From a virus, in UHGV virus genome UHGV-0038737: a stretch of 31,147 bases of DNA; one strand, 5' to 3'. The notes beneath the pieces are model-generated. The model had not been told where the DNA came from. It saw only the letters and a list, made by a program, of their open reading frames with translations, and searched no databases. The translations under genes were made by a program, and so were the position numbers. Shown piece by piece: positions 1,916 through 30,687 of this stretch (positions within the stretch are counted from its first letter, which is position 1; every line of letters starts with the position of its first letter).

Positions 1916-2797
1916 TCAATACCCCATCACTCTTATATGAAAAAAAGGGACCCAGCCTGTCTGAGGAGTTTTAACGCTGACGGTTAAATATGTTGTTAAT
2001 AGCCCACTGCCATTATCTTTATCTCTGCATGTTTTAACATCAGCATTGTATCCGGGGGTTTGATTTCCAAATCTGTCGCCTGAAATGGACGCAACGGCAG
2101 TAATAATGCCGTTAGGTAATGCGACGGGGAGCGGCACTTTATAGTAGTGCGTATAATACGTAATACCTCCCACTGTCTGAGGGTTGTATGCTCCTACTGC
2201 GATGACGCCACCTATGAGGAAATCCATTTGATAAATATCGCCAATTTTTATCACGCTGGAGTTTGTTCCTGACCTGACATAGGTGATACCCAGATTGGAC
2301 AGCGCGGCGTCTCTGGTTGTCGCCCCGGTCCCTCCCTGGTCAATACTCAATGCTGTACTTAGCCCTTTCAGCTCTGTGATATCGCTATTTGCCCCTTTCC
2401 GGGCGAGACCACCGATGGCAGGAATGCTGAGGCTGGTGCCGTTGATTGTCACAGTGACCAGTTGGTTCGCTGAGGTACTGGCGAACGTTTCCCACGCACC
2501 GATATTCTCGTCATACTCATTGATGAGCTGAGACATGGCCTGTGCCAGTCCATCAACCGAGATAATGTCTGATACCAGAATGCCGTACTTCTGGCCGCTC
2601 AGCGCCGGGGAAGCAGCTGGAGTAACCGTCATTGACGTGGCGCTGTTCACGGATGAAATCTGGAACAGCTGCACCGGGTTAGACATCACGATAATTGTCT
2701 GCCCAGCGCGAACCTGGCTGGCCGGTGCCGTCCAGTTTGTGCCCGTCCCGGTGGCGGTATTTCCATTAATGGCGATGGTGCCGGTGTTATAAAGCAT
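1916..2797 (-). CDS. Side tail fibre protein
   Basis: Contains the conserved fibre motif LSIDQGGTGATTRDAALSNLG and Gly/Thr/Ser-rich beta-type composition. ATG at 2797 with GGAG RBS (the ORF track starts at TTG 2812). A Tfa gene follows directly. Confidence 0.8.
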   Translation of the reverse strand: MLYNTGTIAINGNTATGTGTNWTAPASQVRAGQTIIVMSNPVQLFQISSVNSATSMTVTPAASPALSGQKYGILVSDIISVDGLAQAMSQLINEYDENIGAWETFASTSANQLVTVTINGTSLSIPAIGGLARKGANSDITELKGLSTALSIDQGGTGATTRDAALSNLGITYVRSGTNSSVIKIGDIYQMDFLIGGVIAVGAYNPQTVGGITYYTHYYKVPLPVALPNGIITAVASISGDRFGNQTPGYNADVKTCRDKDNGSGLLTTYLTVSVKTPQTGWVPFFHIRVMGY

Positions 2798-2812
2798 ATT
2801 TTCTCCAGGCAA

Positions 2813-2837
2813 TAAAAAAACCCCGCCGGAGCGAGGT
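2813..2837 (-). terminator. Rho-independent terminator downstream of the lipoprotein gene
   Basis: Minus-strand RNA CCUCGC-UCCG-GCGGGG (one G-U pair) followed by UUUUUUU, 20 nt after the lipoprotein stop. Confidence 0.55.
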
Positions 2838-2857
2838 TTATGTTTAAGCGTAGTGGG

Positions 2858-3091
2858 TTATTTGCAGGTTGTTTCGGTAAATGTATTCGCACTTACCCAG
2901 CGCCAGCTGAAAGGATATCCAGCCCGGTACTGCGTCTGGTTGTTTTGTTTACGCACACCGTAAATCTGAACCGTAGTTTCCTGACCGCCAACGATTGCAG
3001 TGCCGCTGCAAACTGGTTCCTGTTTCTCAATTACGCCAGCGCATCCTGTAAGCATGACAGCGCCTGCCATGCAGATAATCAGTTTTCTCAT
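2858..3091 (-). CDS. Small lipoprotein moron (77 aa), possibly Cor-like
   Basis: Signal peptide MRKLIICMAGAVMLTGC with lipobox LTG-C. Own terminator downstream and a separate AT-rich, repeat-rich upstream region. Embedded between tail genes. Confidence 0.6.
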   Translation of the reverse strand: MRKLIICMAGAVMLTGCAGVIEKQEPVCSGTAIVGGQETTVQIYGVRKQNNQTQYRAGYPFSWRWVSANTFTETTCK

Positions 3092-3202
3092 TTTGATAGT
3101 ATCCAGAGGAATTCAGTATCTTAGACGATACCAATACAATTCTGGTGGGTATAATTGATTGGATAGATCAATATTATGTTATTGATCGCTAAAAACGATC
3201 AA

Positions 3203-3877
3203 TCAATCATAGGCCGCTGTATTTATGGCGGTTAATGAAATGCCAGTATTCGTTCCCCCTCCAGGTGAACCTGCCCCAGTGGAGGTCCCCCCTGCGTTTA
3301 TCCTCGTATTGGCCCCGTCAAACCTGCATGAAGAATAAGCATTTATCGTGTAGATAGTCGGAGGCTGGGTTGAATTATTCACAATGATGGTCTGACCCAA
3401 CTGAGCAGGTGCAACGGCCCATGACCCGCTCAGCGTCTGGTCAATATTTATCCCGCCGTTTGCACCAGGCGTGCCAACCGTCTGCAGGTCTGATAGCACA
3501 CGGGACTCATTAGTTAACACAAGCTTTCCGCTCGCATCCCATATTGCCAAACCCCATTTCGGTAATATCTGCGGGAATATGGCAAAAACGTACGCCGTTA
3601 AAGTGAAACTTTGGTTGTAGGGATTAACACCAGCAACATACACATTACCGCCGTTCCTGTAAGACATAACCGGAGTGGGCTGTGCTGTATTGGTGGTTTT
3701 GATAAAAACCATCACTGGGTAATCAGCGTTTAAAGCGATATTTTGAGCAACCTGCTGAGAACTGCCATTCGCGGATGAATTGAAGGTATACTTCCCGTAA
3801 AGACAGAAAGGCGTTGATTGTGGCGTTACAAAGGGATTCCCGTTATCCATTAATATCATCGCGCCAAATTCGGCCAT
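3203..3877 (-). CDS. Hypothetical tail-region protein (224 aa)
   Basis: ORF translationally coupled to the upstream gene (TAATG overlap at 3877). Gly/Asn/Thr-rich beta-type composition, downstream of J. Function unknown. Confidence 0.6.
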   Translation of the reverse strand: MAEFGAMILMDNGNPFVTPQSTPFCLYGKYTFNSSANGSSQQVAQNIALNADYPVMVFIKTTNTAQPTPVMSYRNGGNVYVAGVNPYNQSFTLTAYVFAIFPQILPKWGLAIWDASGKLVLTNESRVLSDLQTVGTPGANGGINIDQTLSGSWAVAPAQLGQTIIVNNSTQPPTIYTINAYSSCRFDGANTRINAGGTSTGAGSPGGGTNTGISLTAINTAAYD

Positions 3878-4179
3878 TATGCTTTCTCCATGAAAACGAC
3901 CACCTCACATTTAGAGGCCGGGTAATTACCCAGGCCCAAAGAAGAGGCTGCGGTTACGGTTATTGTGTTCCCTGACGCGACAATGCTCCTCCCTACGCTG
4001 TTACCTCCTTCATCAAGTGAGAGCGCAAAACCGACCTTCATTCCTGAGGGTACAGTGAAAGACCAGCTGCCGGAGTTTTGTCCGGCGGCAAGTTGTATAC
4101 GTCCAACAACGGAAACGGGCTTGATTCCGTAGTTGTTGGGGTTTCCCGAAGCATCCCAGGTCTGTATTCCATAAGCCAT
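3877..4179 (-). CDS. Hypothetical tail-region protein (100 aa)
   Basis: ORF starting 2 nt after the J stop and overlapping the next gene start. Function unknown. Confidence 0.6.
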   Translation of the reverse strand: MAYGIQTWDASGNPNNYGIKPVSVVGRIQLAAGQNSGSWSFTVPSGMKVGFALSLDEGGNSVGRSIVASGNTITVTAASSLGLGNYPASKCEVVVFMEKA

Positions 4180-4180
4180 A

Positions 4181-7100
4181 TCAGAACACCCCCGTTAATC
4201 GGCCAACCTGCACTCTCAGAACGTTGTTGCCATCCTTGACGCTGATTGTCTGGTTGGTCTGCTTCATGGCTCCCTCCCCAGCTGTCGAACCGTAGTTCTC
4301 AAACGTCCCGGACTTATCCAGTTTCCAGCCAACAGAGCCGGCAACATAATTGTTCGACTGGATGTAATTGCCAATTTTTGCATTGCTTATGGTCCCGTCG
4401 CCAATGACTGTATCCCTGATAATGGCCTGGCCATTCTGGATAACGAACGGCAGTGTTACAGTCCCGCCGACCATAGTAGTCACGGCGAAACGGTCTGCCA
4501 GGAAGATTACCTGTGGCTGCATGCCGGAGGGTGTATTTTGAACCCCAATACCCATCCCGGCAGCGTAATACTGCCCGTTACTGGACACCCCCACCTTGAT
4601 GTTATACATCGCGCTGAGGTTACCGTTTACATCTGCTATAGCCTGTGCGTTGACGTTTATCGCTGCACTGTTTTCGCCTGATTTAACAGTCAGAGTGTTG
4701 ATTTTTGTTGCCGAAGCCTGGGTGAAATCAGCAAGAGTTTCTGTCAGGTCCGTTGAGTTAGAGATATTGCCACCAGCTTCTGCATCCAGTGTGACCAGCG
4801 CGCGTGCGACCGCCTGGCTGGTATCGGCAATCGTAGTATCCACTCTGTCTATACTGGCACTGTTCCCGGCGTTTGTTGCTGTCTGGGAACGACGACTGAC
4901 AACCTGCGCCAGCCCATTCTGGATTATCGCAATTGCCGAATTCTTCACGCCTCCTGTCATACCGTCCATTGAAACGGAAATCTCATCGATTTTTACCGCC
5001 GCCTGCGCCAGCCCGTCAGCGTTTTCCTGTATATCTTTCGCCTGCTGCTCCAGCTCGTCGGCATGGTTTTTGATTTCGTCAGCCATGCCAGCAATTTTTT
5101 CATTGCTGTCCACTGCGCTCTCAATCAGATCTTTAAACGTAGCGGAGTCTTTGATCTCCTCCAGGATCACATCGGTGATATCGGAAACATCGATGCTGGC
5201 CTGACCTCGCACCCAGTCGGTATACCCGGACTCGTTTCCCGTTCTGTCGACCAGTTGCGCGCGATACCAGAAAATCTGCCCTGCCTTAAGACCCATCTGC
5301 TGATATTTGCGCTGCGGATAAGGCACATCGGCCAGCAGCATTGCATCATCTTCGCTACCGGTCAGGCTGTACTGAATTTCCGTCTTCAGCGTGTCTTCGG
5401 TATTCGCCGGGAATCCCCAGTTCAGCTCGATACCGAATACCACGTTTTCAGAAGCGATGAAGCCAACCGGCTTCGGTGGGTTTCCCACTTTACCCGTCAA
5501 CGTTTTCTCTTCTGAATAGCCCCACCCAGATGAAATTTCGGCGGCATTGATGGCACGCACGCGAACCAGGTAGCGTCCTGCATAAATCCCCGGAACATCG
5601 AATGACGTGGTGGAGCTGCGCGGCACATTCACCCAGTTCCCGTCATTGCGACGCCACTGTGCCTCATACGCGATAGCATTTTTCGCCTGGTCCCAGCTGA
5701 CGCGCATGGTCTCAACGCTGATATTCTGCTGAACGACAGAAAACGAACTGATCGCGATATTAGCTGGCGGGGACTGATTACCGGGCGGAATTACACTTAT
5801 TGGCCGCTGGTCGATAATGGCACCGGTATCGATACGCGCATATTTATCCGGATCGTGCAAAGCGCCAGCAATCGAATACGTTCCGTCATTATTATCCGTA
5901 ACGCTGATAACGCGATATTGCTGCGCGTAAAGCTCTTCAGACTCGACAATCCACACCGATTCCACTGCAGGTGTTTCGCTGTATGCCGTTGTCACAGTGA
6001 CGGCCCGCCCGTTTACGCTCTGTATCGTCCTGCTCTGCGATGCGCCGGACGGAAGGTTAACCATCAGACGGCTTCCGGGAGCGGCTGCCGAATCACGATC
6101 AAGCGTGATAACGCGACCGTTAACCGCACTGATGCGCCCTCCCATCACCTTTCCGGATAACAGATCATCGGCAACCGCGATAATATAACCAGGCTGTGGA
6201 ATGTTGCCGTCCAGGCCAACATCAAACGATACGATGCGATCCTTGTTATTGGTCAGAATCCCCCAGCGTCCCTTACGGTTTGCCTCCGACTGCCGGGTAC
6301 AGCCAATGGCTGTCATTTCGAGCTGGTTTGTGCCAAACCGAGCGACGAGCTCCTGTTCAAAAACCGGCTCCATCGCATCTGCGTAGGCATTACCCGGATC
6401 AGACCAGGAAACCAGCGCAGTGGTATAGCGGTTTTTAATGGTGCTGCCAGAATAGGTAAAGCGGCCGTCAACCACGTTAGCGCGGGTGTAGCTGTAATCC
6501 ACATCACGGGGCATATCTGCCAGCGCAACGATTTGATCGCCGCCCCAGTACGTCATGCCACGGAATATGGCCGCAAAATCACGCAAAACGGTATACGCAT
6601 CATTCCTCTCCTGCACATAAACGTTGCACGTATAGCGGGGTTCTGTTCCGGTACCGCCTTTACCGTCGGGAACTGGCTGATCGCAATACTGCGCAACCTG
6701 GTAAAGTGTCCATTTATCAATATTTGCCGCCGTCAGGCGGTCGCCAAGTCCGAAACGGTCGCTCACCACCAGATCGTAAAAAATCCACGCCGGATTGTCC
6801 GTCCATGCCCACTTAAACGCCCCCGTCCAGGTGCCGCTATAGGTCCGGGTTTCCGGATCGTAAGTATCCGGCACGCGGATAACGCGTCCGCGCGGTTCAC
6901 AGGAAATTTGCGGGATGGAGCCGTTAAACTGGCTTGAGTCGAATTCGATGTACAGCAGCGCGGTATTTGGATAACGCAGTTTGGCGTCAATGACCTCTGT
7001 GTAGCTCTGCAGCGTCATCGTGTCGCCAATTTTCGCGCTGTTGGCATCCGCTGTTAGCTTACGCAGGCGCACCGTCCATGTGCTGCCTGCCTGCGGTAGG

Positions 7101-7630
7101 TCGACGCGATGGCTGCGTTCGTAGCCGGAAGTTGTCTTGCCGGTTACGCTGGTATTAAGTACCGTCTGCCAGGTGCCGCCATCGGTCTGCAGATCAATAG
7201 CGTAGTTAATTGAATAGCCAACCAGATCGCCATCGTCCTCCTGTTTAAAAAGCGATGGCCACTTGAGGCGCAGGCGAACGGCTGACAGTTGCGTGTTGGT
7301 AAAGGTATGTGTCCAGCCGGTGGTGCTTGACACTTCGGTGCCCACGCTGATTTCATTTTCGGTGCCGGGGATACCCTGAATATATTTTTGTGCCTGAGTC
7401 CCCGGACGAAATTCCCACGTAACGCCGCTGAAGTTTTGGGAGCCGTCGGCGTTCTCCAGCGCCGTTCCGTCCAGGTAGATATCCTTCCCGGTGAGCTGTC
7501 CAGCAAACTCCCCTTCCCCAAGCGCAACGAGGATCTTTGCCTTCGCTACAGATTGCAGATCATCAGGCTGTTCGGTGGGAGTTCGGGAACTGGAGCTCCC
7601 GCCTTTTCGTCCGGTAATTGTTTTAGCCAT
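4181..7630 (-). CDS. J: Tail tip / host specificity protein J (central tail fibre)
   Basis: 1149 aa, of lambda gpJ size, with fibronectin-like middle region and a distinct C-terminal domain. Position directly after I. Confidence 0.92.
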   Translation of the reverse strand: MAKTITGRKGGSSSSRTPTEQPDDLQSVAKAKILVALGEGEFAGQLTGKDIYLDGTALENADGSQNFSGVTWEFRPGTQAQKYIQGIPGTENEISVGTEVSSTTGWTHTFTNTQLSAVRLRLKWPSLFKQEDDGDLVGYSINYAIDLQTDGGTWQTVLNTSVTGKTTSGYERSHRVDLPQAGSTWTVRLRKLTADANSAKIGDTMTLQSYTEVIDAKLRYPNTALLYIEFDSSQFNGSIPQISCEPRGRVIRVPDTYDPETRTYSGTWTGAFKWAWTDNPAWIFYDLVVSDRFGLGDRLTAANIDKWTLYQVAQYCDQPVPDGKGGTGTEPRYTCNVYVQERNDAYTVLRDFAAIFRGMTYWGGDQIVALADMPRDVDYSYTRANVVDGRFTYSGSTIKNRYTTALVSWSDPGNAYADAMEPVFEQELVARFGTNQLEMTAIGCTRQSEANRKGRWGILTNNKDRIVSFDVGLDGNIPQPGYIIAVADDLLSGKVMGGRISAVNGRVITLDRDSAAAPGSRLMVNLPSGASQSRTIQSVNGRAVTVTTAYSETPAVESVWIVESEELYAQQYRVISVTDNNDGTYSIAGALHDPDKYARIDTGAIIDQRPISVIPPGNQSPPANIAISSFSVVQQNISVETMRVSWDQAKNAIAYEAQWRRNDGNWVNVPRSSTTSFDVPGIYAGRYLVRVRAINAAEISSGWGYSEEKTLTGKVGNPPKPVGFIASENVVFGIELNWGFPANTEDTLKTEIQYSLTGSEDDAMLLADVPYPQRKYQQMGLKAGQIFWYRAQLVDRTGNESGYTDWVRGQASIDVSDITDVILEEIKDSATFKDLIESAVDSNEKIAGMADEIKNHADELEQQAKDIQENADGLAQAAVKIDEISVSMDGMTGGVKNSAIAIIQNGLAQVVSRRSQTATNAGNSASIDRVDTTIADTSQAVARALVTLDAEAGGNISNSTDLTETLADFTQASATKINTLTVKSGENSAAINVNAQAIADVNGNLSAMYNIKVGVSSNGQYYAAGMGIGVQNTPSGMQPQVIFLADRFAVTTMVGGTVTLPFVIQNGQAIIRDTVIGDGTISNAKIGNYIQSNNYVAGSVGWKLDKSGTFENYGSTAGEGAMKQTNQTISVKDGNNVLRVQVGRLTGVF

Positions 7631-20469: not shown

Positions 20470-22391
20470 TATTCATCTCCAGATAATGCCCTGGCATAAT
20501 CAGCCAGGGTTTTGTTATTGGTCCGGTTCCCCTCTTCCTCCAGTAGGCTCGCGAGCAGTGAATCAAGATTCAGTTGCCATCGCGAAATACTGATCCGCAG
20601 GGCAGCCAGCGCGTACACGAAGCAGTCCAGCGCCTCATTTCGTCGCTTTTTGCTGTCCCAGACGATTTTCTTACGCCCGTCCACCCATTTTTCAACCTGC
20701 TCCTCAGCAGTAAGCTGCTGCGCCTCAGCCAGATCATAAATTTCGGGGTTATTGGGAAAATGCACGGCACCGGCAAGAGGTTCACTCCCTTCCGGCTGAA
20801 GTGTGAAGCGGTTATAAATCTGCTCCTTTGCGGTATCAGTCCCCACTTCCGTCAGATAAACGCCGTTCTTGTTGCGTTTACGCGGCATATTCGCGACAGG
20901 CTTACCGTAAACGGAAGCCCCTTTAATCGGGATCACGCGAAACAAACCATGCTTTTTTGAGCGATTGTAGACAATGGTGGGGTCAATACCGCCGATATCC
21001 CAGCAGATACGGGATACCGACATTTCCACGCCATTCTTTCGGAGATAGGTTTTGTTAATCGCCTCGTCCACCCTGACGAGGGTCGCTTCATCATCATGAC
21101 GGCCCATAATGATCTGCCGGTCAATCAGCCAGCTTTCCTCACCGGGCCCCCATCCCCAGACGCGCATTTCATATCGATCCAGTTGGGAGTCGATCCCGGC
21201 TGTCAGATAAGCAACACGCTCCGGTACGGATGCCCCGAAGAACTCTTTGCGTTCGGCCATGAGCTCCGCGTCAGGCCGTTCACCAATTTTAGGCTCCCAT
21301 GTTTCGCCCAGAGTGGTGTTCACGAAGGTTTTACGCTTTCCTGTATCCCCTTTCGTTTTTAGCCAGTCTTTAACGATCTGAACCCAGGTGGTAAACGGGC
21401 TGTATGCCGTCCAGATGTGAAACGTCACGCTGTCTGGCGGGTCGATTTCGGTGCCTGTTGATGAAAACCAGGATAAACCGTCGCGCGTCCAGATCCCGGT
21501 GGTGTCGCAGATGTAACGAGCTTCAGTGAAATCCAGCTCCTGCTGCTTAATGACGCAGGCATTATGTTCACACAGGTAAAAGACGCTGGAGGGTTCGCCC
21601 GGTGTCCATTTCAGCCCGAACGGGGTCTCTTTGTCGCCGAATTTAAGGTACTGCTCTTCACCACAGTGCGGACAGGCAACATGAAAACGCATGAAATGCC
21701 CGGACTCGCTGGCAGCACGCTCAATCTGGCAGGTCCCCTTTGTTTTTGGCGTTGAGCCGCGAATAGATTTGGGCCAGACAGACCCCTCAATACGTTTATC
21801 ACCCAGGAACGTCGGGGATCCCTCTTTCTCAATATCTTCATCGAATGCCGCCAGTTCATCGTAACCGGCGACATCGACCGATTTCTCACGATAGTTTTTC
21901 GCCGCTTTACCACCCAGACACCAGAACCCGCGACCGTTGGAGAAGCGTTTCATACTGAGCGTATTGTCCCGGTGCTTTTTTCCATACCAGGGGGCCAGCG
22001 CCAGAAGTGACGGAATATCGCGAATCGTCGGCTCAACATGCGACTTCATAAAGTTTTCGGCGTCACCATCAGTAGGCAGCCAGATAAGGGAATTTCGCTG
22101 CTTGTGCTGAATAAAATACGCATAAACACCCAGCAACATTTTTGAATAGCCAACACGGGCAGACTTAACAACGTTGACCTCACGTATGTAATCGTTACCC
22201 ATCGCATTCATGATCGCGCGTTGAAACGGCAACGTTTCCCAGCGCCCTTCCTGGTAGGCCGACTCTTTGGGGAGATAGTAATTATCGTCTGCCCATTCAA
22301 CCGCCGTTTGCGGCTCAGGTCGGTACAGCGAAAGTAGACCCGCGCGCGCAGAGTGCTGCAGCCCCTTAACCTGACTGTTCGATATATTCAC
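20469..22391 (-). CDS. A: Terminase large subunit A
   Basis: 640 aa, lambda gpA-like. Overlaps the Nu1 3' end by 26 nt as in lambda. Confidence 0.95.
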
Positions 22392-22911
22392 TCAGCAACC
22401 CCGGTATTATTTCATCCAGCGCAGCTGCTTTGTTCATGGCTTTAATGATGTCCTTCTTGAGGAAATCAATATGTCGGTTTTCCAGCTCCGGGAAGCGCCG
22501 CTGAACCGACAGAGGAACTCCATCAAGAATGCTGGCTACTTCTCCGGCCATCCGCGACAGCACGAACGTGCAGAATGCGGTTTCCACCACCTCAGCGGAA
22601 TCTTTTGCATTTTTTAGTTCCTGGGCATCTGCCTGCGCTCGGGTGAGGCGGTGACGCTCATAGTCAATCGTACCAGGCTGAAGGTCGGATTCCGATGCAA
22701 GACGAAGGTCTTCCACCTCCTTCCGTAATTTCTCATTCTCAATCGCCGCGTCGCGTGCGGAATACCATTCGATAGCCGCGGAAGATTCATAGAGGACCTC
22801 ATTACCTTTTCCACCGCCACGTGCTACAGGCATTCCCTGATCCTGCCAGTTCTGAATGGTTCGCACGCTGACCCCAAATATTTCAGAAAGACGCTTTTTG
22901 TTGACCTCCAT
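22366..22911 (-). CDS. Nu1: Terminase small subunit Nu1
   Basis: MEVNKKRLSEIFGVSVRTIQNWQDQGMPVARGGGKGNEVLY... is near-identical to lambda Nu1 (181 aa). Confidence 0.95.
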   Translation of the reverse strand: MEVNKKRLSEIFGVSVRTIQNWQDQGMPVARGGGKGNEVLYESSAAIEWYSARDAAIENEKLRKEVEDLRLASESDLQPGTIDYERHRLTRAQADAQELKNAKDSAEVVETAFCTFVLSRMAGEVASILDGVPLSVQRRFPELENRHIDFLKKDIIKAMNKAAALDEIIPGLLSEYIEQSG

Positions 22912-29997: not shown

Positions 29998-30687
29998 TTA
30001 ATTGACTTTTGCAATACCCTGCTGGGAATAAGTCGCCTTTTGTTGTGATCGTGTTCTCACAGTGCAAAGCAGAGATTCGCTATCGAGCCCCTTAAAGATG
30101 CTGCACATAACTCGCCAGTAGTCCGCGTAATTGTGGCTCCAGTTGTCCGGTTTGACACCACACATAGCAGCTAAGTCCTGTTGCTGATAAACATCACGAC
30201 CAGCCAGTTCCGCCTTCACATCCTGCGCAGCCAGCCAGATTAATGCCTTCAGGCGCTCCAGGGTTTTCCCAGCTATTTTGCGCGCCCCCATCTGGGACTT
30301 GAATTCATCCCACGCCCACTGAGTAATCAACACCTGATTATCCCAGCGCACATTCTCGCTGTAGTTCCATAACAGCCACGCCTTTTGGTGTTCTTCGAGT
30401 GACATCAGTGCGCGGCGCCACGATGAGGTGGAGTATTCAACCGGCTGCACCAGCGGAATATGCGATCCCTTAGCATGCGACTGTTTACCGGGGATTGGCG
30501 GGTTATCCAGAGTTATCATCTCGCCAGTAACCTCATCCTTCACCTTCATCTTCTTCCGCTTAAAGGTACCGGTATCGAACTGCGCGTTCTCAAGCCAGGC
30601 CATTAACTGCCCTTTCGTCGCACCACTCAGATCGGCGGTGGCCACTATCAGCTGCTGGCGCACGTATTCGAGAAATTGAGTGTTCAT
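29998..30687 (-). CDS. Q: Late-gene antiterminator Q-like protein
   Basis: 229-aa ORF in the canonical position between rusA/ylcG and the late terminator/lysis genes. Assignment is mainly positional. Confidence 0.6.
   Translation of the reverse strand: MNTQFLEYVRQQLIVATADLSGATKGQLMAWLENAQFDTGTFKRKKMKVKDEVTGEMITLDNPPIPGKQSHAKGSHIPLVQPVEYSTSSWRRALMSLEEHQKAWLLWNYSENVRWDNQVLITQWAWDEFKSQMGARKIAGKTLERLKALIWLAAQDVKAELAGRDVYQQQDLAAMCGVKPDNWSHNYADYWRVMCSIFKGLDSESLLCTVRTRSQQKATYSQQGIAKVN

Follow-up and report, generated by a model that had tools for sequence, protein, structure and literature searches.

Why should three GATC sites, the target of the Dam methylase, stand crowded together immediately upstream of a small lipoprotein gene in a lambdoid prophage? 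This question is raised by the viral genome UHGV-0038737, which we analysed as a stretch of 31,147 nucleotides (nt), hereafter the window. A sequence-only reading of this DNA had proposed that the sites and the inverted repeats around them form a Dam-sensitive operator of the type known from pap, agn43 and phage gtr operons. Our analysis of the lipoprotein and of the DNA in front of it leads us to think it reasonably probable that OxyR, a LysR-type regulator of the host, has a bipartite site here in which the three GATC sites are the positions open to methylation. The site lies before the promoter of the superinfection-exclusion gene cor and would putatively work as a Dam/OxyR switch.

The lipoprotein of 77 amino acids (aa), encoded at 2858-3091 on the minus strand, matched PHROG 1119 at E 7e-37 and its protein sequence is 100% identical to those of the Cor proteins of phages phi80 and mEp237. 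These matches identify it as Cor, the FhuA-inactivating superinfection-exclusion protein of phi80-type phages, an identity that the sequence-only reading had missed. Cor is a lysogenic-conversion protein that inactivates FhuA and shields lysogens from FhuA-dependent phages and from colicin M, at the cost of lower ferrichrome uptake (PMC3594210). Its recognition here provides a biological rationale for a switch, in which phage resistance is set against ferrichrome uptake.

The GATC sites were found at 3166, 3184 and 3197, exactly where they had been placed, and both of the inverted repeats described before are also exact, GATCAATA/TATTGATC at 3166-3173/3180-3187 and ATTGATCG/CGATCAAT at 3181-3188/3196-3203. 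Sites and repeats all fall between the stop codon of the 224-aa open reading frame (ORF) on the minus strand (3203-3205) and the start of the lipoprotein gene (3091), together with a third, outer inverted repeat (3150-3161/3200-3211, 11/12 matching) that was absent from the first description. Spanning 31 base pairs (bp), this is the tightest GATC triple in the window, and the nearest other GATC is more than 1.9 kb away on both sides. When 111 sites were placed at random in 31 kb, an equally tight triple arose somewhere in 43% of the simulations, and clustering on its own is not beyond chance (P about 0.43). The case therefore rests on conservation and on the fit to known protein-binding geometry. 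Another tight triple, of 37 bp, was seen inside gene J (GATC at 5128, 5153 and 5165, region 5128-5168); it has no palindromic or OxyR-like context and fits chance.

What geometry, then, do the sites have? Instead of the two overlapping inverted repeats that had been taken for the operator, we found two 15-bp half-sites separated by 16 nt. The distal half-site, D, is ATCGTTTTTAGCGAT (ATCGtTtttAgCGAT, ATCGnTnnnAnCGAT) at 3185-3199 on the minus strand and matches the OxyR consensus ATAGnTnnnAnCTAT at 8/10 positions; the promoter-proximal half-site, P', is ATCTATCCAATCAAT (ATCtaTccaAtCaAT, ATCtnTnnnAnCnAT) at 3154-3168 on the same strand and matches at 7/10. Between them lies the 16-nt spacer (3169-3184), whose central bases vary between lineages. 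Two of the GATC sites (3197-3200 and 3184-3187), separated by 13 bp, belong to D, which with its flanks reads TTGATCG-N7-CGATCAA (3196-3202 and 3182-3188). P' begins at the ATC of the third GATC (3166-3169), and its final base opens the -35 hexamer. Each of the three GATC sites overlaps a recognition element (ATCG or CGAT) of D or P', placed inside the half-site as in gtr A and C and in Mu mom. P' reaches outside the repeats described earlier, and the inverted repeat at 3166-3187 is not a conserved unit, its arms falling in two separate half-sites with variable bases between them.

Two OxyR half-sites separated by 16 or 17 nt can be placed in the window in 62,200 ways, and D plus P' was the top pair (15/20). 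A register with a 7-nt spacer (3163-3199) scored 16/20, with the runner-up at 13 and a score of 16 reached in 1 of 100 simulated windows. We rejected this register as the conserved unit since its inner ATAG is not kept in other lineages and contexts, the spacer forming the corresponding half-site (3163-3177) in the mEp237 lineage only, and the conserved unit is thus the pair with the 16-nt spacer; in the mEp237 lineage the 7-nt register may be relevant. Consensus scans of the window for Fur, FNR, CRP, DnaA, IHF, Lrp, ArcA, H-NS, Fis and LexA gave no standout match at the site. Specifically, a Fur box, attractive since Cor blocks an iron receptor, matched at 11/19, a score equalled at 201 places in the window, and the best Lrp match (12/15) was equalled at 34. 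In pap, two GATC boxes about 100 bp apart, lying within two sets of Lrp sites, are bound by Lrp with its co-regulator PapI. No second GATC cluster exists within 1.9 kb of the cor triple, let alone a box about 100 bp off, and with the Lrp match so unremarkable the analogy to pap drawn by the sequence-only reading had to be abandoned.

We then asked how the region behaves across cor lineages. Cor loci were collected from IMG/VR through the Cor protein, blind to the upstream DNA. This yielded 51 different upstream variants, the most divergent Cor being 77% identical. The GATC positions at -109, -96 and -78 from the ATG are kept in nearly all of them, and the bases between the second and third sites vary. 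In an alignment of 53 cor sequences, the majority-base frequency was 0.95 for D (3185-3199), 0.93 for P' (3154-3168) and 0.91 for the -10 region (3125-3133), as against 0.76 for the spacer between -35 and -10, 0.58 for third codon positions of the adjacent gp23-like gene and 0.72 for those of cor. The module is thus more conserved than the neighbouring codons in these 53 lineages, which we read as selection.

Some variants have lost GATC sites and not the half-sites. Phages of the HK022 type (loci L064-L072) lack the first GATC through an exact 4-bp deletion and the third through a change of TTGATC to TTTATC, and their half-sites still score 15/20; in one variant (L014) GATC became GATA, creating ATAG, and in another (L012) a GATC was lost by a change of its C, which lies outside the half-site. 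N15 (L338, 2500-2560) keeps the distal half-site with a single GATC. Judged from their sequences, the upstream regions of HK022, N15 and these two variants may be natural locked, methylation-blind versions of the cor promoter. For three point changes, a loss pattern that spares the half-sites has a chance probability of about 1 in 8 and is suggestive only.

More distant Cor homologues gave a mixed picture. No GATC was found upstream of those of SSU5 and of a Stx-type podovirus. Upstream of its cor, Erwinia phage Midgardsormr38 (L091, about 1130-1150) has another palindrome, TTCGATCGgaaCGATCGAA, whose two GATC sites are spaced 9 bp, as are GATC-2 and GATC-3, the pair that HdfR binds in Salmonella std. 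The 'Aeromonas' phage pAEv1818 (L090, 1090-1140) carries an unannotated Cor homologue of 61% identity after gp22- and gp23-like genes, preceded by TTGATCGttgcaaaCGATCG, which contains a distal half-site at 8/10, and by a further GATC 32 bp upstream.

The position of the half-sites relative to the cor promoter is the next element of the argument. On the minus strand we read a weak -35 element, TTATAC, at 3149-3154 (the phi80 record FN582354 annotates its -35 at the equivalent of 3150-3155) and an extended -10 element, TGGTATCGT (TGnTATCGT), at 3125-3133, which agrees with the phi80 annotation at the equivalent position and with conservation; the two are 18 nt apart. Transcription is predicted to start at 3117-3119, 7-8 nt past the -10, and the transcription start site annotated in the phi80 record maps to 3117. 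With +1 at 3117, the centres of D and P' fall at about -75 and -44. The pattern TGnTAnnnT is conserved in the cor lineages (0.91) and recurs in the non-cor contexts described below, where a -35-like element (TTGAAC, TTATCA) stands at the same distance from the module.

Two other promoters were considered and not adopted. One lies inside the cluster, TTGATC-18-CATAAT (3202-3173); its -10 is not conserved and most lineages have an AT-rich hexamer at 20-nt spacing. The other would be an antisense promoter built on the plus-strand TATAAT at 3150-3155, which lacks a usable -35, is conserved in cor contexts only and, though it may exist, is not needed. That TATAAT is perfect, occurs as GGRTATAAT in all cor lineages and is the complement of the cor -35 region; an antisense transcript from it would begin at about 3162 and run into the OxyR-type site, a layout resembling that of agn43.

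Is the module tied to cor? A blastn search with the intergenic region alone also matched Yersinia myophages, in which the module stands before a gene unrelated to cor. We then scanned IMG/VR with the pattern TTGATCG-N7-CGATCAA-N11-TGATC, whose 19 fixed bases are expected about once per 1.4e11 bases, and obtained at least 120 stretches; among the matches listed, 98 unique sequences fell into 20 downstream contexts, to which the following counts refer. Divergent cor genes account for 5 of the 20, and the others comprise about ten unrelated gene families. These include membrane peptides of 39-40 aa ending in ECPYD, proteins of 47-49 aa of the form MEL...LHRLAEKLGL, membrane proteins of 95-103 aa, a secreted protein with a TonB_C domain, a Ner-like HTH_35 protein, a D12-class (Dam-type) methylase and several further genes without assigned function. 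At the non-cor loci (L099, L101, L103, L104, L108, L113, L122, L130, L141, L167, L177 and L187) the start codon always lies 63-74 nt past the third GATC.

The scan also allowed a position test, using one representative per context and only positions that the pattern leaves unfixed (the GATC cores being fixed by it). In D, T6 was kept in 85% and A10 in 90% of the contexts; in P', the values were 70% for T6, 100% for A10, 100% for C12, 95% for A14 and 100% for T15. Positions outside the OxyR consensus vary freely, most spacer positions holding about 0.1-0.5 bits. This conservation at unfixed OxyR positions is the strongest evidence that the module is an OxyR-type protein-binding site, and it argues against a by-product of the cor or gp23 sequence. 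Module copies that are AT-rich and have a good P' came from genomes of Enterobacterales and Orbales, among them Yersinia, Serratia, Pectobacterium, Enterobacter, Rahnella and Gilliamella. Such hosts would be expected to carry both Dam and OxyR. The exact pattern also matched a GC-rich conserved element of Sphingomonadaceae (Novosphingobium, Sphingomonas and Erythrobacter; L221, L224, L242, L251, L253 and L276), which shares the TTGATCG-N7-CGATCAA-N11-TGATC skeleton, continues with GAATGCAATTATTCCTCAGGACAGTGTCAACTGTGTCAAC and is often present in several copies per genome, and the bare pattern is therefore not specific. To our knowledge, Sphingomonadaceae are not Dam hosts.

Three arrangements deserve a separate word. 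The secreted TonB_C-domain protein is a possible decoy for TonB-dependent receptors. In two loci (L101, 12091-12140, and L140) a gene for a D12-class adenine methylase lies behind a module with four GATC sites in two 13-bp pairs, whose half-sites ATCGATTTAACCGAT and ATCAGTTAAATCGAT are 16 nt apart; this arrangement suggests that the phage methylase, by methylating an OxyR-type site, regulates the promoter from which it is itself expressed. In Yersinia phage vB_YenM_06.16-1 (L096, 226-330, at the genome end), a module scoring 16/20 with the 16-nt spacer precedes a 62-aa ORF beside tail-fibre genes. After it comes ATGCCCCATAACAAC, similar to ATGCCCCAATAACCAC from the Pmom region of Mu; this Yersinia myophage may have an arrangement like that of mom.

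From the recurrence of the module we tentatively, and with a good measure of doubt, propose that the cor switch would be one case of a portable epigenetic 'bet-hedging promoter' cassette, in which an OxyR/Dam module of mom geometry combined with a weak -35 and an extended -10 would have been attached by temperate phages of Enterobacterales to at least 10 unrelated accessory genes. Were this so, a sizeable share of the morons would be expressed in a phase-variable and not a constitutive manner, and a phage Dam gene would regulate itself by way of methylation at the OxyR site in front of it. We have seen no earlier description of a module recurring in this way, before some ten unrelated families of prophage genes with a phage Dam among them, and this recurrence is the more novel lead. 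In practical terms, a module that recurs before many prophage genes offers a simple signature by which other phage genes under epigenetic switching can be sought.

How might the site work in front of cor? Of the earlier proposal, a Dam-sensitive site of the agn43/gtr type before the lipoprotein gene finds strong comparative support in the half-site geometry, the best match in the window, the conservation and the position relative to the promoter; the comparison with pap and the operator built on the pair of repeats do not hold. OxyR binding, its block by methylation, bistability and the direction of control are our reading of the sequence. In the proposed mechanism, the two half-sites, 16 nt apart on one helix face, centred near -75 and -44 and directly followed by the weak -35 and the extended -10, would be bound by a reduced OxyR tetramer when the GATC sites are unmethylated, and the bound tetramer would shield the sites from Dam; methylated GATC sites would block OxyR binding. 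Each state would perpetuate itself through replication, and a lysogen population would consist of Cor-ON and Cor-OFF cells, a mix that would hedge resistance to FhuA-dependent phages and colicin M against ferrichrome uptake. We lean towards the OxyR-bound state being ON, the weakest step of the proposal, because the site has an opvAB-like position, because the -35 (TTATAC) is poor and because the HK022 lineage has lost GATC sites and kept its half-sites, with a Cor that is cited as protective.

Several observations weigh against the proposed OxyR/Dam switch at cor. P' matches at only 7/10 in this phage, with ATCT in place of the ATAG element, and the flanks ATTG/CAAT are conserved beyond the needs of the OxyR consensus, so another protein or the kinetics of Dam may be involved. 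The 16-nt spacer has its precedent in mom only, the phase-varying agn43, gtr and opvAB having 17 nt or 32 bp centre to centre. The placement of the cor transcription start rests on the annotation of the phi80 record and on a consensus reading. Moreover, our literature search, which left most subscription journals outside its coverage, found no paper linking cor to Dam, OxyR or phase variation and turned up neither methylome nor reporter data for cor prophages. To these must be added that in agn43 and mom, the nearest systems with a single site, OxyR acts as a repressor (PMC2909390).

This last point leads to the alternative that survives best, in which the same OxyR/Dam site acts as it does in Mu mom. 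OxyR bound to un- or hemimethylated DNA would then repress the cor promoter and full methylation would be permissive, giving a gate with no heritable switch; cor expression would track the state of the phage DNA in methylation or replication, and dam+ lysogens would all be Cor-ON. The GATC spacings of 13 and 18 and the 16-nt spacer are identical to those of mom, whether mom expression phase varies is not established (PMC2909390), and lysogens of phi80 and N15 have been described simply as Cor-protected (PMC3594210). However, the cor site is mirrored and lies about 16 bp closer to the promoter than that of mom, abutting the -35 as the activating OBSD of opvAB does, and agn43, with one site and three GATC sites, does phase vary. 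HK022, moreover, has lost two of its three GATC sites and kept the half-sites; under a repressor model its cor should be locked off in lysogens, yet HK022 is named beside N15 and phi80 among the phages whose Cor protects lysogens (PMC3594210). We consider a mom-like gate unlikely.

A second alternative accepts the site and replaces the protein. The ATTGATC units would be bound by a different factor, either a LysR-type regulator such as HdfR or another host or phage factor, with the GATC sites serving that protein or SeqA, and the resemblance to OxyR sites would be a by-product of the generic LysR T-N11-A palindrome. The conserved ATTG/CAAT flanks, exceeding the OxyR 15-mer, speak for this, as does the distance of 31 bp, or about three helical turns, between the first and third GATC, a spacing that could allow SeqA to bind hemimethylated sites. 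HdfR, for its part, binds a GATC-containing site in std in a methylation-sensitive manner, but at std the GATC sites, found at -220 to -242, have spacings of 13 and 9 (PMC6735912), a geometry and position different from those of cor. The same flanks occur, however, in gtr half-sites with demonstrated OxyR binding (PMC2909390), the conserved internal positions are exactly T6, A10, C12, A14 and T15 of OxyR, and the presence of the module in phage types as unrelated as lambdoid siphoviruses and Yersinia myoviruses points to a host factor rather than a phage one. We regard this alternative as quite improbable.

Finally, the idea that the nested repeats form an RNA or DNA hairpin (an attenuator, a processing site or a roadblock where the late tail operon ends) with merely incidental GATC sites is hardly credible: the minus-strand RNA of 3140-3215 does fold to -18.5 kcal/mol (z = -4.5 against shuffles) and the late operon (Q, lysis genes, Nu1 ... 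J, gp22, gp23) reads into the region, but the palindromic half-sites account for the z score, the stems lack a following U-tract, a terminator scan found nothing in 3092-3215 and terminator-like sites only after cor, there is no Rfam match, the stem arms are invariant and so show no covariation, the conserved unfixed T6 and A10 of D fall in the would-be loop, the outer stem is lost in other lineages and contexts, and in other contexts the module follows unrelated upstream genes.

The surroundings of the module are those of a moron. The window corresponds to the late region of a phi80/mEp237-type lambdoid prophage, with genes read on the minus strand: Q (29998-30687), the lysis genes, Nu1 (22366-22911) followed by the head and tail genes, J (4181-7630), a gp22-like gene of 100 aa (3877-4179) and the gp23-like tail-region gene of 224 aa (3203-3877, stop codon at 3203-3205), and then, after an intergenic gap of 111 bp, cor itself, starting at 3091. 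An intrinsic terminator at 2818-2839 on the same strand, found by the terminator scan and annotated in the mEp237, mEp213 and phi80 records, closes the cor moron, beyond which lie tail-fibre genes and an invertase. Like the Cor of phi80 and N15, the protein is a small lipoprotein, and its gene comes after J, gp22 and gp23 with its own predicted promoter and terminator. The stop codon of the gp23-like gene abuts the GATC module, which forms the 5' edge of the moron; in one other cor lineage the stop TGA of that gene overlaps the TTGATCG of the module. Over bases 2800-3900 the window shares 100% identity with mEp237 and 89% with phi80. No phage-encoded Dam was found among the window ORFs tested. 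Elsewhere, the window matches the mEp237 record at 96-97% on either side (295-828 and 2433-6898) of a segment that differs, 828-2433, which encodes a 298-aa tail fibre and a 137-aa assembly protein beside the DNA invertase (197-790), where mEp237 has a 467-aa fibre. The segment is a swapped or inverted tail-fibre tip module.

Cor is a textbook case of receptor-blocking superinfection exclusion (phi80, N15, HK022) and has been treated as a constitutive prophage gene despite its ferrichrome cost. If the OxyR/Dam switch is real, lysogen populations would be mixtures of phage-resistant and iron-proficient cells, and the way exclusion, colicin M resistance and prophage fitness effects are measured would need rethinking. 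An E. coli phage gene would then join the very short list of Dam/OxyR-controlled loci (agn43, mom, gtr and opvAB), and HK022 and N15 would supply natural locked variants for comparison.

How does cor compare with these systems when each locus is read from its own sequence record? It shares half-sites at the spacing of a reduced OxyR tetramer (about 16-17 nt), GATC sites embedded in them and an adjacent predicted promoter. In cor the GATC spacings are 13 and 18, and the half-sites ATCGTTTTTAGCGAT and ATCTATCCAATCAAT stand 16 nt apart and score 15/20. Mu mom is closest in layout, with three GATC sites upstream of the gene (18 and 13), half-sites ATAGAAAACGACGAT and ATCGGTAATACAGAT, a 16-nt spacer and a score of 14/20; the GATC positions inside the half-sites are the same, and the site likewise lies upstream of a weak phage promoter at a similar distance, the mom GATC sites being at about -87/-69/-56 and those of cor at -83/-70/-52. 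The order is mirrored, however, the 13-bp pair being distal in cor and proximal in mom, and the cor site is nearer the promoter. Moreover, mom is a late lytic gene, repressed by OxyR and dependent on the phage activator C; cor is a moron expressed from the prophage.

In agn43 (flu) of E. coli there is, as in cor, a single OxyR site with three GATC sites (spaced 19 and 13), and GATCAATAT is common to agn43 and the window. Its half-sites, ATAGAATAAAACGAT and ATCGTTTATATCGAT, score 16/20 and differ from those of cor in being 17 nt apart and in covering the -10 and the early transcribed region, hence the repressor role of OxyR; agn43 is, besides, a chromosomal or island adhesin gene. The gtrABC operon of P22, like cor, is a phage-borne lysogenic-conversion locus that alters a phage receptor. 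It has three half-sites, A ATCGGTAACAACGAT, B ATAGATAAAAACTAT and C ATCGCTTGTATCGAT, with 17-nt spacers (18/20 for the AB or BC pair), and its OxyR(A), aTTGATCGgtaacaaCGATCAAt, and OxyR(C), aTTGATCGcttgtatCGATCAAa, both show the TTGATCG-N7-CGATCAA form seen at 3182-3202, each with two GATC sites separated by 13 bp. OxyR binding to the gtr half-sites, and its loss on Dam methylation, were demonstrated by electrophoretic mobility shift assay and in vivo methylation analysis, and the repressing half-site C lies further downstream, over the -35, with GATC sites at -46 and -33 (PMC2909390). gtr has four GATC sites and two alternative OxyR positions, AB activating and BC repressing, whereas cor, with two half-sites and three GATC sites, has no obvious alternative site.

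In pap (Lrp/Dam) and std (HdfR/Dam), as at the proposed cor site, Dam competes with a DNA-binding protein at GATC sites upstream of a promoter. For promoter position the parallel is with Salmonella opvAB, which, like cor, is horizontally acquired and trades phage resistance against fitness. It differs from cor in having four half-sites and four GATC sites (one per alternate half-site) over about 130 bp, and a switching logic that involves non-adjacent sites. Its OBSC is centred at -75 and its OBSD at -43, immediately upstream of the -35, and OxyR is required for expression (PMC4856963); these centres match those of the cor half-sites at -75 and -44. The Dam/OxyR class is itself well known, and cor is probably a new member of it.

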